64,000 bases of DNA. Source: Ignavibacteriota bacterium. Its GTDB lineage: Bacteria > Bacteroidota > Ignavibacteria > UBA10030. The stretch is taken from NCBI GenBank assembly GCA_963769605.1, contig CAVYML010000009.1:12579-76578 (forward strand). Direction: 5' to 3'. Positions 4,176-49,013 of this stretch are shown here, one piece after another (positions within the stretch are counted from its first letter, which is position 1; the number at the start of each line of letters is the position of its first letter). Under the pieces are notes generated by a model that was given only the letters and a program-made list of their open reading frames with translations, was not told the DNA's origin and made no database searches. Both the position numbers and the translations under genes were made by a program.

Positions 4176-4667
4176 TTACTTCAGTCCGTACCTTTTTAGA
4201 TATAGATATGTCAGATAGGCCGTTCCGGTCATTTCTACCGAGCTTAAAATCGTTTCCAATGTTCGGTATTCCTCCTGCCTGGCAAGATCGCTTTTCCATG
4301 CAGAGATAATATCCGCATTCGCCCTCATCGACGCAGAAGGAATGGGAGTTGAAAGTGTCAGCGCCTGCTCAAGCGAAGAGGGAAGATTCGGCGGAAGCGT
4401 CCTGAGCGACAACGGAATAATTACATTGGCCTTTTGCTTTGATAATTCGGACGTATCGAACTGGCTTTTACCGAGAGATGTATCGCGCATCTGTCCTGTT
4501 GTTTGCTTTTTTTCTCCGACTGCAGTGGAATCTTCCAGCGGCGGTGTTAGAAGTTCCCGTCCATTCGCAGCTAATACAGCCAGGAGAAAAAGACAGAAAA
4601 AAAGAGCAGAATTTATAGATCGACTATAAGGTCGGCTGAAGAAATCAAACAATTTCTTTAATCTCAT
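4176..4667 (-). CDS. Hypothetical secreted protein (signal peptide)
   Basis: 163-aa ORF with an N-terminal hydrophobic segment; no recognisable domain. Confidence 0.35.
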   Translation of the reverse strand: MRLKKLFDFFSRPYSRSINSALFFCLFLLAVLAANGRELLTPPLEDSTAVGEKKQTTGQMRDTSLGKSQFDTSELSKQKANVIIPLSLRTLPPNLPSSLEQALTLSTPIPSASMRANADIISAWKSDLARQEEYRTLETILSSVEMTGTAYLTYLYLKRYGLK

Positions 4668-4741
4668 CTCTACCCTCCTGAAATGGATTTATATATAAAC
4701 GAATTTAAGGAGAAAATGTTGTTAAAAAAACCTTTATGAAC

Positions 4742-4797
4742 GGTGAATGGTAAATGGTGAATGGTGAACTGCAAACGGTAAACTGTAAATAGTAAAC
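4742..4797. repeat. Degenerate heptamer tandem repeat (GGTRAAY)n
   Basis: cggtgaatggtaaatggtgaatggtgaactgcaaacggtaaactgtaaatagtaaac read directly; lies upstream of the 4176..4667 ORF on the minus strand. Confidence 0.5.
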
Positions 4798-4952
4798 AAA
4801 ACAACTAATGAACCAAATAACCAAAGAACTAAGGAAATATAACGGAACACAATTGGCAATAGTTCCCTCTTCCATTTTCCCTTGAGTATTTTAAGTTCCA
4901 TTCAATCTGTGGCCGCGGGCGGCGACCGCGGTGGTTTTTCGTAGAGTAAGAA

Positions 4953-16537: not shown

Positions 16538-16569
16538 ATTGATAATGTTCAATGATTTGATTAACTTAA

Positions 16570-16632
16570 ATGAGGCGATGGAGTTCGCCTTAAAATATCC
16601 CGAAGGTTCATCGGGATTGATGACTCCTGCAT
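16570..16632 (+). promoter_or_regulatory. Fluoride riboswitch (crcB RNA motif)
   Basis: GAGGCGAUGGAGUUCGCC...AUCCCGAAGGUUCAUCGGGAU...UGAUGACUCCUGC matches the conserved aptamer elements, including the GGAGU/ACUCC pseudoknot; followed by a stem plus U-run and the crcB RBS. Confidence 0.85.
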
Positions 16633-16683
16633 CGAAGCGAATTGCTTGCGAGGTAGGGGTTTTTCGTTTTATGAGAGGATGAA

Positions 16684-44325: not shown

Positions 44326-45357
44326 TCAAGGAATTGCGACGGCAAAGAATTCCACATCGTGATCCGATGTGATTTTATACTGTGACAGCGCGGCCGGCAG
44401 AAAAAACGATTCTCCTGAAGAAAATTTTTCGACCTGCTCTTTCCCGCCGGAAGTCCAGTGCACTTCCAGCATTCGCTTTGTTATCAAATACACGCCCGGC
44501 CTGTCGCCGGATTCAAACTGCCGATGGAAACTTTCCGTTTGCCCAAACCGGGATACTTCAAATTCTTTCGCAGTTGTCCGATAGGTCGTTTCCCCGCTTT
44601 CCGGTCCAGCCTGCATAACCGGACATTCTGCAAAATTGTACCGGACAATATCGAGCAGCGCCGCCACATCTTTAAATTTATTCGTCAGTCCGGCCCGAAC
44701 GACATTATCCGAATTCGCCATGCATTCAACTATATTTCCTTTGATATATGCATGTGGAATACCGGCATCCGTAAAAATTGCCTGTCCCGGTTTTAGTTGT
44801 ACCAAATTGAAAAAGAAAAACGACAACAGCCCGACATCATCGCCAAACAACCGATGCTGTTCTAAAAATTGTTCTTCTTCCGGCGAACGGAACGCTTGAG
44901 CCTTCATCCGTTCCACTATTCGGGAAATGCAGGCGGTTAAAAGTTCTTTATCTTCCGCATGCTGCATGACGGCTTCATATATTTTTTTAATCGAGTTTTC
45001 TTCCGATGTCATGTCTTTACTTTGCAGGATTTCATCTGACAGTTCCTGCCCGACAAGTTTGCTTAATTCCGGCAAAGACTCAAGATTTTTCCGGATAATT
45101 CGGGCTGGTTTAAATCCGGCAAGAGCAATAAGCGAATCCAGTGCGATAGCAACTTCCGGCTTGTGATTATCGTCCGGATAATTTTTCGGATCTCTTGCAT
45201 GCAGCTTCCGTGCCTGTAATTTGTTCGGATGCGTTTGAATGGAAAGTGCATGGGCAGCAGAAAGAACCTTGAGCAGAAACGGAAACTTCTTCGAAAAATG
45301 TTCGCAGACATACGATCCCAGGCATTCCAAAGGGTAATGTTCAATGACATGATTCAA
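44326..45357 (-). CDS. manA: Mannose-6-phosphate isomerase, class I (conserved N-terminus extends to about 45550 without a canonical start)
   Basis: LSIQTHPNK and HAYIKGNIVECMANSDNVVRAGLT motifs. In-frame upstream translation gives ...KPYKLYNAIKNYEWG...YAELWIGAHPKAPS, matching PMI N-termini, but holds no ATG/GTG/TTG before the upstream stop (only CTG). Confidence 0.8.
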   Translation of the reverse strand: MNHVIEHYPLECLGSYVCEHFSKKFPFLLKVLSAAHALSIQTHPNKLQARKLHARDPKNYPDDNHKPEVAIALDSLIALAGFKPARIIRKNLESLPELSKLVGQELSDEILQSKDMTSEENSIKKIYEAVMQHAEDKELLTACISRIVERMKAQAFRSPEEEQFLEQHRLFGDDVGLLSFFFFNLVQLKPGQAIFTDAGIPHAYIKGNIVECMANSDNVVRAGLTNKFKDVAALLDIVRYNFAECPVMQAGPESGETTYRTTAKEFEVSRFGQTESFHRQFESGDRPGVYLITKRMLEVHWTSGGKEQVEKFSSGESFFLPAALSQYKITSDHDVEFFAVAIP

Positions 45358-45853
45358 AGGAATTCTCGAGCCGTCTATTTCAATTTCAGACGGCGCTTTC
45401 GGATGAGCACCTATCCAGAGCTCCGCATACGGCGTATCAGGTTCTGCCTGAATGCCAAGAAAACGAGGAATATAGGCGGACTCGTTTCTTGTTCCCCATT
45501 CATAGTTCTTTATAGCGTTGTAAAGTTTGTACGGTTTGGAAGAAAAATGCTTCAGGACGGTTTTCCTATCTCAAATGAATTGCAAATGTATTGATCATTT
45601 TACAACCTTTTTGCTATTCAGAAATGTACTCAGAATTGATCAAGAGAAAAAGGGAATACAAACAATTCAGACACGCCTCTCATCCGCGTCCCTGCAACCG
45701 GGGCATTCCCGTATGAAACATATCCGTCAATAGACGGCATGGATGATATATTTCTATCAAAGAGAGTTCCGGCACTCCAAGGACGATATTCGGATATTCC
45801 AAAATGTGGCAGGTTGGAAGAGATGGTCATCCTTAATAAAAGGAGAACAAAAA

Positions 45854-46000
45854 ATGAAACTGATTTTAATCTGTAAACGCAATATCACACAGGTCAGTTA
45901 TAAGAAGCTCAATTTTACAAACCCTCGTTTAAGAGAATCGCATTGCTCCGAAAACTTTAAAAACGCCGCAAAACTGAACACGGCCTTTTCAGCCGATTAA
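45854..46000 (+). CDS. Small basic Cys-containing ORF (48 aa) with strong RBS
   Basis: aaaaggagaacaaaaaATG; MKLILICKRNITQVSYKKLNFTNPRLRESHCSENFKNAAKLNTAFSAD. Confidence 0.3.
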   Translation: MKLILICKRNITQVSYKKLNFTNPRLRESHCSENFKNAAKLNTAFSAD

Positions 46001-46015
46001 ATAAAGATATATATC

Positions 46016-46044
46016 TTGCTATTGAGGCAGAAAGGGTCTATACT
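46016..46044 (+). promoter_or_regulatory. Near-consensus sigma70-type promoter (TTGCTA, 17 bp spacer, TATACT)
   Basis: Read directly; it would initiate a ~450-nt untranslated RNA preceding the repeat-protein gene at 46506. Confidence 0.4.
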
Positions 46045-46505
46045 AAATAAGTCGACACAGTCCACTATTCTCGCCAATTGAGCGGGTATTGGAGTCGGAA
46101 ACATCTTTTGGAAGAATTGCCTCTGCATCTTTTCTTTTTCATTCATCCATTCTGAAGCTTCTACCAACGGACAATGTTTCACTCCGATGCGATAGGGTGA
46201 AAAGTTCGACGTGTTTATCGGCTTAAGGAATTGGATGGAAATTATTCATATACATACCCAAAACTGAGTTCTGAGGCGTTAAAATCTTGAGAATACAAGG
46301 TTACGATGGCTGCGCTCTTGCGTTTTCCGGGCATGTTTAAGATGTGCCGCCGGAGACACCGGGGACAGCTTATAAAGACGTACTTAGAGCTCATAAAGGG
46401 TTTGTCAATAAATCTCGAATGGCATATCCCGACAGCAGAGAATCCGGATTTCCTATTTTATAGTTATCTATTAATTTAAGTACACTTTTTTTAACGGCAA
46501 ATATC

Positions 46506-46790
46506 ATGACATATACAATGCGCGGTCCTGATTTGTACGACACACACAATCGAAAAATTGCTGTCACACGCGGCGCAGGAATTTATGACCGCGACAACCG
46601 AAGGGTTGCAACGATCCGCGGCAACAATCTTTTCGATTCGGACGATAGGAAGTTGATGACAGTCCGGGGATCGTTTATTTATGACGCCGGCAATAAACGA
46701 GTGGCCTCGCTGGTGGAGGCAGAGGATGCCATCACTGGAGCGAGTGTCGGCATGCTGTCCGTTGCACTCTGGTATTGCTTTATACGGTAA
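46506..46790 (+). CDS. Small protein made of four tandem ~16-aa repeats (G-x2-[IL]-[YF]-D-x2-[ND]-[RK]-[RK]-[IVL]-A-[TS]-[IV]-R-G), YD-repeat-like
   Basis: PDLYDTHNRKIAVTRG / AGIYDRDNRRVATIRG / NNLFDSDDRKLMTVRG / SFIYDAGNKRVASLVE read from the translation. Confidence 0.45.
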   Translation: MTYTMRGPDLYDTHNRKIAVTRGAGIYDRDNRRVATIRGNNLFDSDDRKLMTVRGSFIYDAGNKRVASLVEAEDAITGASVGMLSVALWYCFIR

Positions 46791-46855
46791 ATCCGCTGAG
46801 AAGATGGCTCTAAAAATTATCAGAGTACAGGTTCAATTCACAGACCCAAACTTTT

Positions 46856-47494
46856 TTACCGCTTCTGCTCGGTAAATACGAAGTCTTTTGGATTATATCC
46901 CTGGAATTTTAGTATTTCGAAAATTTTATCTTGATCTTCCTGAGAAAGAGCGGGCAGACGGCCAAGTATCCATCCGTACTTGCGGGTCGGCGCACCAACA
47001 ACAGCATACCGGTAATCTTTATCCAATCCGATAATCCAATAATCTCCCCAAAACAATTGTATGCCGAGCAGTCGGACGAAACTGACCTCTAACTTTGAAT
47101 TAGTCACTGTGTCCACTCTTCGTGCTATTCCCTTCGCCTCATCAATAGTTCCATCGCTTTGGGTGCATCGGTTGATGACATCGATTCTTCCATCGGCCCT
47201 GATGCTGTATTCAGCAGTCGTATTGCACGCACATTGCTTTTGAAAGCTATTGGGAATCTTTGCGATCTCATACCAGGTTCCGACATATTTATTTAGATTG
47301 ACCGAGTCTACTGTGACCGGTTCTGCATGGTTGGAACTCGAGGATGATGTATCCATGGATTGACTCCAGGAAAATTGAGTAAATAATAATCCGCAGAAGA
47401 ATAATCTCCCGAGGAAGGCTGAGAATTTTCTTTGAATAGTTCCCGGCAGCCGCACGATCGCTCCACCTTGATTTACAACTCTCTTCATGTTCAT
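46856..47494 (-). CDS. blc: Bacterial lipocalin (Blc)
   Basis: YVGTWYEIAKIP and GDYWIIGLDKDYRYAVVG lipocalin motifs. Confidence 0.85.
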   Translation of the reverse strand: MNMKRVVNQGGAIVRLPGTIQRKFSAFLGRLFFCGLLFTQFSWSQSMDTSSSSSNHAEPVTVDSVNLNKYVGTWYEIAKIPNSFQKQCACNTTAEYSIRADGRIDVINRCTQSDGTIDEAKGIARRVDTVTNSKLEVSFVRLLGIQLFWGDYWIIGLDKDYRYAVVGAPTRKYGWILGRLPALSQEDQDKIFEILKFQGYNPKDFVFTEQKR

Positions 47495-47587
47495 TATCTT
47501 TGTCTTTCTCCCAAAAATGTTTCAGTGCAAATTTAATGCTTTCACTATCTATTGGCAAATCAATAATGCTTCATTGCTGCGGTTAAA

Positions 47588-48442
47588 TTACACTTTATCA
47601 ATTTTGAACGATGTCATCGCTAAAGAACCTGCGACCGTTTTATCGTTAAAGAGACTCACTTTTTCCCCATCTTCTCTCAATGCTAAAGCGTAAAGCATCG
47701 GCAAATAATGCTCCGGAGTCGGAATTGCCAATTGGAAAGCCTTCCCTTGCGATTGATAATGTATAAGAGATCGATGGTCTCCATTCAGAATATATTTTTT
47801 CATTTTCTCGCCGGCCTCAAGCGCCCATTCATATCCATATTCTGCCGCATCCAGCTTTTCCCATGCAAGCAGTCCGAGATTGTGAACCATGTTCCCGCTT
47901 CCGACGATCAACACGCCCCTGCTGCGAAGTAATGAAAGCTCTTTTGCCAGGTCATAATGATCTTGAGGCGCACCGTTGTAATTTAAGCTCATTTGGACGA
48001 TCGGAACATCGGCAGCAGGGTAAAGATGTTTGACCACGCTCCAGCATCCATGATCAAGTCCCCATTTTTCATCCAAAGCAATCTTGGTCATTTGAATGTC
48101 ATTTTTTAATTCTTTTGCCAATTGGGGACTTCCCGGCGCGGGATATTGGACCTCATACAATTCTTTCGGAAAGCCGCTGAAATCATGAATGGTCTTCGGT
48201 TTTTCCATTGCCGTTACGCATGTCCCTTTTGTTTCCCAATGCGCCGATATGCAGAGAATGGCTTTCGGTTTCGGAATCTCCCTTGCAATTTTTTTCCATC
48301 CATCGACAAACTCATTTTCTTCAACGGCATTCATTGGACTGCCATGACCTAAAAAAAGCACGGGCATCCTTTTCCGGCCGCTCAAAGTGCCGGTACTCGT
48401 GACAGGTGTATCCGATTCCATCGCTTCTCCTCGATGATGCAA
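47588..48442 (-). CDS. ygiD: 4,5-DOPA dioxygenase extradiol-like (YgiD family)
   Basis: MPVLFLGHGSPMNA...ISAHWET motifs; the conserved start may be at 48367. Confidence 0.85.
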   Translation of the reverse strand: MHHRGEAMESDTPVTSTGTLSGRKRMPVLFLGHGSPMNAVEENEFVDGWKKIAREIPKPKAILCISAHWETKGTCVTAMEKPKTIHDFSGFPKELYEVQYPAPGSPQLAKELKNDIQMTKIALDEKWGLDHGCWSVVKHLYPAADVPIVQMSLNYNGAPQDHYDLAKELSLLRSRGVLIVGSGNMVHNLGLLAWEKLDAAEYGYEWALEAGEKMKKYILNGDHRSLIHYQSQGKAFQLAIPTPEHYLPMLYALALREDGEKVSLFNDKTVAGSLAMTSFKIDKV

Positions 48443-48452
48443 AAATTATACT

Positions 48453-49013
48453 TCAATGCCGATCATGAAGCTCATCTAATTTTTTTCGTAAAATGTTCAG
48501 AGTGTAGGATATTTGATGCTCAATGGTTCTCACACTCACCCGGAATATTTCGGCAATTTCTTTGTTGGACTTTCCTTCAAGCCTGCTGAGAAGAAATACT
48601 TCCCTGCATCTTTGAGGAATATCTGTTTTTATTATCGTATCGATTTCCTCCTGCAGTATCTTTAAATGCAGGGCTTTTTCCGGATCGTCTCCTTCTGATA
48701 AAGACGGATACGGCAGTTCATCCTCCAATCTTTCCCTGACCTTTACATGTTTCACATAATCGCGGAGAAGATTTCCGCTGATGCGCAGAACATAAGCCGC
48801 AAAACTAAGATGCGGTTTCAGCGAACTGCGATGATTCCACACATTGATGAATGTCTCTTGAACAATATCGTGTGCAATATCCGCCTGTCGTATATAGAAT
48901 ACTACGTACCTGAAAACGACCGGCTGGTAGCGATCGAACAGTATCCGAAACGCATCCATGTCGGAATTCTTTACTTTTTCCAGAAGCTGCGATTCTGTGA
49001 CCTTCTGTTCCAT
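48453..49013 (-). CDS. RNA polymerase sigma-70 factor, ECF subfamily
   Basis: Region 2 (DIVQETFINVW) and region 4 (EIAEIFRVSVRTIEHQISYTLNILRK) signatures. Confidence 0.85.
   Translation of the reverse strand: MEQKVTESQLLEKVKNSDMDAFRILFDRYQPVVFRYVVFYIRQADIAHDIVQETFINVWNHRSSLKPHLSFAAYVLRISGNLLRDYVKHVKVRERLEDELPYPSLSEGDDPEKALHLKILQEEIDTIIKTDIPQRCREVFLLSRLEGKSNKEIAEIFRVSVRTIEHQISYTLNILRKKLDELHDRH

Follow-up and report, generated by a model that had tools for sequence, protein, structure and literature searches.

In the genome of an Ignavibacteriota bacterium, the gene manA and a lipocalin gene are separated by a stretch with little apparent coding sequence, which raises the question of what this stretch holds. 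The analysis was performed on 64,000 nucleotides of contig CAVYML010000009.1 (the window; positions are counted from its first letter unless a related locus, denoted by L and a number, is named). A preliminary description, made from the sequence alone, had proposed a promoter, a long untranslated leader or small RNA (sRNA), a 48-aa peptide and a 94-aa repeat protein for this gene-poor gap. The lack of any long open reading frame (ORF) was confirmed; the gap between manA and the 94-aa ORF extends over about 950 bp (45553-46505), and the longest ORFs in the region are one of 85 aa (45743-46000) and the 94-aa ORF itself, which encodes a beta-flower protein and is referred to as the flower gene. 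Between the promoter and this gene, the suspected structured leader RNA was borne out as a conserved, structured, non-coding stretch of the plus strand that belongs to no known family, and it is best read as a cis-acting 5' untranslated region (UTR) of the flower mRNA.

Conservation and fold of the leader

The leader comprises 461 nt (46045-46505), in agreement with the length of about 455 nt described earlier. Three parts were distinguished on the plus strand: a 5' half (46045-46254) in which the alignments show conserved blocks and a hairpin (46108-46167), a 3' domain (46255-46418) to which RNAalifold and a covariance model (CM), named R1, assign a three-way-junction fold, and an A+U-rich linker (46419-46505) that in the alignment runs from the structured domain to the start codon. 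The closest loci in genomes are those of Ignavibacteriota/Ignavibacteriae metagenome-assembled genomes, with manA identities of 85% and 79%. The leader was found in the window, L095, L005 (with L099), L020 (with L089, L097 and L100-L109) and L085 (with L096), and the comparison covers one small clade with four deep lineages and eight distinct sequences. In this set, the spacing from promoter to ORF is 420-656 nt, about 370 nt can be aligned in all members, and the linker from core to ATG is about 70-90 nt long in most lineages (88 nt in the window) and about 296 nt long in L085.

Relative to the window, the leader is 75-77% identical in L005 and L020 and 62% identical in L085; for the 3' domain the values are 79-82% and 70%, with invariant runs of 15-20 nt. 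At four-fold degenerate sites, the flanking genes are 54-75% (L005/L020) and 44-59% (L085) identical. The leader is conserved at least as well as these sites, and the 3' domain more so. Conservation in relatives, which had been put forward as a check, was thus observed for both the leader and the 94-aa ORF, and the leader shows compensatory base-pair changes as well.

The leader is non-coding. Its mismatches are evenly spread over the codon positions (19/30/31, 28/26/31 and 42/48/50), and the flower ORF shows an excess at the third position (7/3/31, 3/0/25 and 19/10/46). The indels of the leader measure 1, 13, 4, 5 and 20 nt, mostly not multiples of three, and no ORF within it is common to the lineages, each candidate frame being interrupted in at least two or three of them. 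Hidden-ORF readings of the leader were rejected on stops, frameshifts and missing codon periodicity. The proposed 48-aa peptide (45854-46000, plus strand) lies upstream of the promoter. Sequence reading confirmed the ORF and an AGGAG ribosome-binding site 8 nt before it, but a conserved gene was not found: close to codon 40, L095 (about 95% identical over this part) has an indel of 1 nt that converts the frame into a 124-aa read-through across the promoter, tblastn revealed no counterpart in L005 or L020, and searches of Pfam, NCBIfam, PADLOC and PHROGs gave no match. Since it is frameshifted in L095 and has neither counterpart nor family, the 48-aa ORF is treated as spurious and is very probably not a gene.

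The leader remains with the flower gene in L020, despite three genes inserted between manA and the cassette. A CM search of 954 kb of related loci plus the window gave no further copy, and a metagenome scan with the leader pattern recovered only a duplicate of L020. Flower proteins at least 76% identical to that of the window form two 90%-identity clusters in the protein database, and all their members were traced to contigs. Since every cluster member was traced and the other scans found no more copies, the leader appears to be restricted to a small clade. A blastn comparison of the leader with plasmids and phages gave no match, and a scan of viral contigs with the promoter pattern gave nothing. 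An 18-mer match in a viral contig (L098) was discarded as a high-G+C chance match, which the CM scored out.

The fold of the 3' domain consists of four helices. P1 pairs CCC (46257-46259) with GGG (46398-46400); P2 is a 16-bp helix of 46264-46279 with 46377-46393, formed by UGAGUUCUGRGNCGUU and its partner strand; P3 is a short hairpin at about 46281-46301; and P4 is a long bulged hairpin (46308-46369). Model R1, built from the RNAalifold consensus of this domain only, scores all homologues at 162-171 bits. Over 51 pairs in the eight distinct sequences, 95.6% of cells are canonically paired, compared with 35-46% after the partners have been slid 1-3 columns. Compensatory double changes were observed in 6 pairs, compared with 0-2 in the slid controls, a number reached by 0/500 shuffles. 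In the 5' half, the hairpin at 46108-46167 (UUGGAAGAAUUGC ... GAAGCUUCUACCAA) carries a pyrimidine-rich loop of about 30 nt, and its pairs are invariant or altered on one side only.

Invariant G-U pairs are numerous on the plus strand (e.g., columns 63/111, 65/109 and 83/91), and the folding energy of the leader relative to shuffles is z = -1.5 on the plus strand and z = +0.9 on the minus strand. Because of these pairs and this asymmetry, the RNA is placed on the plus strand, the strand of the flower gene. The "several local hairpins" noted earlier are not significant in single-sequence folding (z = -1.5), but the comparative evidence for pairing is. Taken by itself, the existence of a conserved structured RNA on the plus strand is considered highly probable.

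The RNA had been described as not assignable to a known family, and comparison with the 4227 families of Rfam 15 agrees. No match was obtained for 45000-47500 at E <= 1. At E <= 10, the region gave only snR75 (16.6 bits vs a gathering score of 40) and MEG8_1 (10.8 bits vs 70), both eukaryotic and at chance level. Nothing was found for the L085 leader at either threshold, and a tRNA/tmRNA scan was negative.

The beta-flower protein and its promoter

The 94-aa ORF (46506-46790, plus strand) encodes four 16-aa beta-hairpin repeats, LYDTHNRKIAVTRGAG / IYDRDNRRVATIRGNN / LFDSDDRKLMTVRGSF / IYDAGNKRVASLVEAE, followed by a hydrophobic C-terminal helix. The four tandem repeats that had been reported were confirmed by direct reading; they exist at the protein level only, since Tandem Repeats Finder detected no DNA tandem repeat in the ORF. 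The 4-fold beta-flower family PF21784 is matched with 26.1 bits against a gathering cut-off of 25, a marginal pass, and PF21785 with 26.9 bits against a cut-off of 38, below threshold, so that the 4-fold and 5-fold models score the protein almost equally. An identical sequence in NCBI is named 4-fold beta-flower protein, the precomputed Pfam assignment agrees, and all close homologues (26/26) match both PF21784 and PF21785.

The AlphaFold2 (AF2) model, computed on the homologues, has a pLDDT of 93.1 and a pTM of 0.82. Strand pairs are formed by 17-22/25-28, 33-38/41-44 and 49-54/57-60, with additional strands at 3-6/9-11 and 65-68, and a C-terminal helix (83-93, MLSVALWYCFI) is modelled with high confidence. 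In many beta-flower members, a C-terminal hydrophobic helix is enclosed by the barrel, and a semi-conserved [DNEQ]xxG motif lies at the tip of the hairpin (PMC10584680). In the 94-aa protein, the hairpin turns are YD-x2-[ND]-[RK] and [TI]RG-x2, with conserved Asp/Asn and Gly in a spacing unlike the literal [DNEQ]xxG. The beta-flower fold, defined in 2023 on the basis of AlphaFold models, is related to Tubby (Durairaj et al. 2023, PMC10584680). The best solved-structure neighbours of the AF2 model are the Tubby-like At5g01750 and Tubby itself, which places it at the fold level in clan CL0395.

As Pfam, the NCBI name, the homologues and the AF2 model agree, the 94-aa protein belongs to the known 4-fold beta-flower family, whose function is unknown, and is no Rhs-like oddity. 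It resembles the family (PF21784 Bflower, PF21785 Bflower_2, clan CL0395) in its size of about 95 aa, its Arg/Lys-rich beta-hairpin "petals" and its C-terminal helix; it differs in nothing essential, and this subfamily is very tightly conserved. The likeness to YD/Rhs repeats suggested earlier is limited to short repeats with a Tyr/Phe-Asp pair that form beta-hairpins. Rhs proteins build a shell of hundreds of residues, unlike the closed four-petal barrel of 94 aa, and neither RHS_repeat (PF05593) nor any other YD family matched at E <= 1. The "unusual repeat protein" of the preliminary description is thus one already catalogued in Pfam and NCBI. Searches of PADLOC and PHROGs with the protein gave nothing, a PDB sequence search with the family profile gave nothing significant, and a literature search on beta-flower function gave nothing relevant beyond PMC10584680.

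Between lineages, the flower protein keeps 95-98% identity where the neighbouring proteins share 78-85%, and its substitutions are concentrated at third codon positions, a pattern that points firmly to strong purifying selection. The C-terminus ALWYCFIR is invariant across the homologues, with the exception of L005, where the flower ORF (4629-4949) encodes 106 aa and ends in ...ALWYLLYSLTKLNGLRQLEI. Either a frameshift or an error in the assembly accounts for this, or the C-terminal motif has truly been lost.

The promoter block CTTGCTATTGAGGCAGAAAGGGTCTATACT (46014-46044, plus strand), defined by conservation, contains a -35 element TTGCTA (46016-46021) and a -10 element TATACT (46039-46044). 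The TTGCTA-17-TATACT arrangement described as textbook is present at 46016-46044, but the claim of near-consensus quality does not stand: the site matches 9/12 positions of a consensus that may not apply to Ignavibacteriota, and sites of this type are at chance level (6 in the 2.3-kb region vs 4.9 +/- 2.4 in shuffles). The block CTTGCyrTTGnnGnnGAAAGGGTCTATACT is conserved in all leader-bearing lineages (window, L095, L005, L020 and L085). The same block is present upstream of beta-flower genes that are more remote (62-70% identical as proteins) in L086, L087 and L090, which have no long leader and in which the distance to the beta-flower ATG is 41-123 nt. The 13-mer AAGGGTCTATACT occurs only upstream of flower genes among the 97 loci compared. 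The promoter was accepted because the block is conserved upstream of flower genes in seven lineages, and not by its consensus match; this comparative evidence is good and supports a functional promoter of the beta-flower gene family.

The promoter spacer TTGnnGnnGAAAGGGTC, within 46014-46044, is conserved in the seven lineages beyond the needs of a plain sigma-70 promoter, which suggests an extra constraint, perhaps from an operator or an extended -10 element. A gene encoding an ECF sigma factor (48453-49013, minus strand) is syntenic nearby in the window and L095. Just upstream of the promoter, a block conserved in L005 and L020 (45955-45995) consists of AAAAC[CT]TTAAAAACGCC and then a short G+C hairpin set between runs of A and T. 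A terminator scan gave terminator-like sites on the minus strand at 45984-45965 and 45995-45981, and in L020 the block begins right after the end of an inserted SRPBCC gene. By its sequence, it looks like a bidirectional terminator or insulator. In the leaderless lineages, the flower gene is divergent from an adjoining LysE-family exporter gene in L086 (3317-4432) and L090 (278-1457); in L087 (1666-4285), an exporter gene of this family lies two genes upstream of the flower gene. The promoter block is kept in all three.

Interpretation of the leader

The leader is predicted to be a cis-acting structured 5' UTR of the flower mRNA, with a probability of roughly 0.55. The flower gene would be transcribed from the sigma-70-like promoter at 46016-46044, which is conserved with the gene family, and in the small Ignavibacteriota clade the approximately 460 nt of non-coding sequence between promoter and ORF would give an mRNA with a long 5' leader. 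Given a promoter that goes with the gene family and no terminator between the structured core and the ORF, a single transcript with a long 5' UTR is the simplest reading. The leader is under purifying selection, and at least its 3' domain (46255-46418) folds as a conserved three-way junction; the leader would act in cis on the flower mRNA as a platform that binds a ligand, a protein or an sRNA. Alternatively, still in cis, it may be a stability or processing module. In either case, it could so set the amount of beta-flower protein made.

Several points weigh against this 5' UTR reading. No terminator and no consistent sequestration of the start codon were found, which leaves it with no expression platform, and the linker that leads to the ATG can be as short as about 70 nt or as long as about 300 nt. 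The promoter consensus that was applied may not hold for this phylum. The consensus fold of the 5' half is weak (-17 kcal/mol, covariation term +1.24), so that an overall fold is unsupported, and the folding energy of the single sequence is unremarkable (z = -1.5). The set contains four deep lineages only, and the covariation rests on six pairs. Related unstructured sequences can exceed the shuffle control, as kinship inflates it, and the fold was derived from the same sequences that were used to count pairs.

A more specific proposal, that the leader is a new class of riboswitch or a protein- or sRNA-responsive riboregulator dedicated to the beta-flower gene, is unlikely. Like the orphan riboswitch candidates and long structured 5' UTRs of Rfam, it is non-coding, conserved and placed between a promoter and one particular gene family, on the gene strand; several of its helices meet in a junction, compensatory changes are present, and the sequences of its internal loops and junction are highly conserved. 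The conserved junction fold between promoter and ORF corresponds to an aptamer, in what is presumably one transcript. The leader is much longer than typical aptamers, with about 370 nt conserved, and comes from only four deep lineages, unlike the riboswitch motifs that have been collected. It also differs from orphan candidates in its expression platform: on the RNA strand, no intrinsic terminator was found from the structured domain to the ATG in the window, L005, L020 or L085, and the start region is 47-61% unpaired with no conserved partner. The absent platform and the variable linker fit a binding platform or a stability/processing module better than a classical compact riboswitch. The gene context (beta-flower, lipocalin and LigB-type dioxygenase) suggests no ligand, and a literature search on riboswitches of Ignavibacteria found nothing relevant.

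The same promoter could instead produce a free-standing sRNA, processed or Rho-terminated, that acts in trans or sequesters a protein, with the flower ORF passively read through or served by its own weak promoter. This explanation is doubtful, though it has points in its favour: the structured core is self-contained, it lies at differing distances from the ATG (88 nt in the window vs 296 nt in L085), no conserved pairing links it to the start region, and a weak promoter-like site overlaps the ATG (46491-46519). However, that site is one of several chance-level matches, and no intrinsic terminator follows the core in any lineage, a scan that Rho-dependent ends or processing would escape. The element, moreover, is placed in every lineage precisely between promoter and ORF of the flower gene, and it occurs nowhere else in 954 kb of related DNA. 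Conservation may also act on the DNA, as an extended regulatory region with transcription-factor sites or as a fixed insertion remnant whose helices are incidental. The promoter spacer and the upstream block (45955-45995), conserved beyond plain promoter needs, would agree with this, as would the status of the leader as a clade-specific insertion relative to L086, L087 and L090 and the many invariant helix positions, which are uninformative on structure. It is nevertheless quite unlikely, as the compensatory and G-U-preserving changes are strand-specific, pairing is kept at 95.6% across lineages only about 70% identical in the 3' domain, no second leader copy exists in the window or related loci, and similarity to plasmids or phages is lacking.

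A functional RNA on the minus strand, namely an antisense transcript that would end at the terminator-like hairpin (45984-45955), is very improbable. The terminator-like sites upstream of the promoter do sit on that strand, followed by a conserved T-run, but the many invariant G-U pairs of the plus strand would become A-C mismatches, the minus strand folds no better than shuffles (z = +0.9), and the CM scores the plus strand only. That the gap hides a decayed gene or one or more small protein genes (the 48-aa ORF, 46089-46226 or 46306-46479) is scarcely credible. ORFs of 45-57 aa are present in the window gap, tblastn of the gap ORFs gave 51-77% identities in L005 and L020, and L095 and L005 have long open frames spanning the promoter and the 5' half of the leader. 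The tblastn matches, however, fall in several overlapping frames on both strands, as nucleotide conservation alone would give, and stop codons break the candidate frames in the window, L020 and L085. L085 has ATA where the window has the ATG of 46306, and in L020 a 1-nt insertion comes after this codon; the leader has no third-position bias and carries frame-shifting indels.

The cis-acting 5' UTR would make the leader a new, narrowly distributed candidate regulatory RNA of a familiar kind and not a new kind of system. As an RNA, it would be one more orphan structured 5' UTR, useful and unsurprising, and of limited wider importance because it is so narrowly distributed. Beta-flower proteins have been known only since 2023. 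The subfamily-wide promoter and the clade-specific leader without an Rfam relative indicate that this tightly conserved protein is probably under expression control, which offers an experimental entry point. If the leader were a dedicated riboregulator, knowing the signal it responds to would open a first way into the function of the beta-flower fold; the cue might be related to lipids, the envelope or stress, given the Tubby-like fold and the conserved lipocalin neighbour.

Flanking genes and minor observations

The left boundary of the gap is manA (44326-45552, minus strand), encoding a class I mannose-6-phosphate isomerase, identified by TIGR00218 and alignment to relatives. With the ORF begun at TTG 45357, TIGR00218 gave 210 bits and covered profile positions 58-353 only, and the full 408-aa in-frame translation aligns with relatives over residues 1-408. 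The gap was set at 45553-46505 because manA homology runs on in frame to about 45552. Residues 1-57 are encoded (within 45357-45560, minus strand) upstream of TTG 45357, the first canonical start codon, and no ATG, GTG or TTG occurs in this frame between the upstream TGA and TTG 45357. The homologous start position is ATG in L020 and TTG in L005; in the window, manA may use CTG or another non-canonical start, or the sequence may contain an error. A short tandem repeat, CAAATGAATTG x2 (45572-45593), lies just upstream of manA, is kept in L095 with one mismatch and may be part of the manA control region. Among 80 manA loci from the genomes examined, only L005 and L020 bear the flower cassette.

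The right boundary is a Blc-type lipocalin gene (46856-47494, minus strand; PF08212, 150.5 bits), convergent with the flower gene. Lipocalin-flower synteny was observed in every leader-bearing lineage (L005, L020, L085, L095 and L100-L109).

Rearrangements were observed on the manA side of the cassette. In L020 (4206-5605), and also in L100-L109, an insertion of three SRPBCC/AHSA1-type genes separates manA from the flower cassette, and its boundary in L020 falls where the conserved block that precedes the promoter starts. About 190 bp of the window (45656-45845), partly present in L005, are absent from the close relative L095, and the ends of the deletion fall in AAAAGG[GA]A direct repeats. 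Over 44326-48442, nucleotide identity between the window and L095 is a mosaic, with 100% for ligB, 99.1% for the lipocalin gene, 97.9% for the flower gene, about 95% for the leader and 92.2% for manA, which suggests recent recombination between closely related strains.

Elsewhere in the window, a fluoride riboswitch (RF01734) was detected at 16565-16636 on the plus strand with 45.1 bits against a gathering score of 34, and it is the only Rfam family matched in the 64 kb at gathering thresholds.

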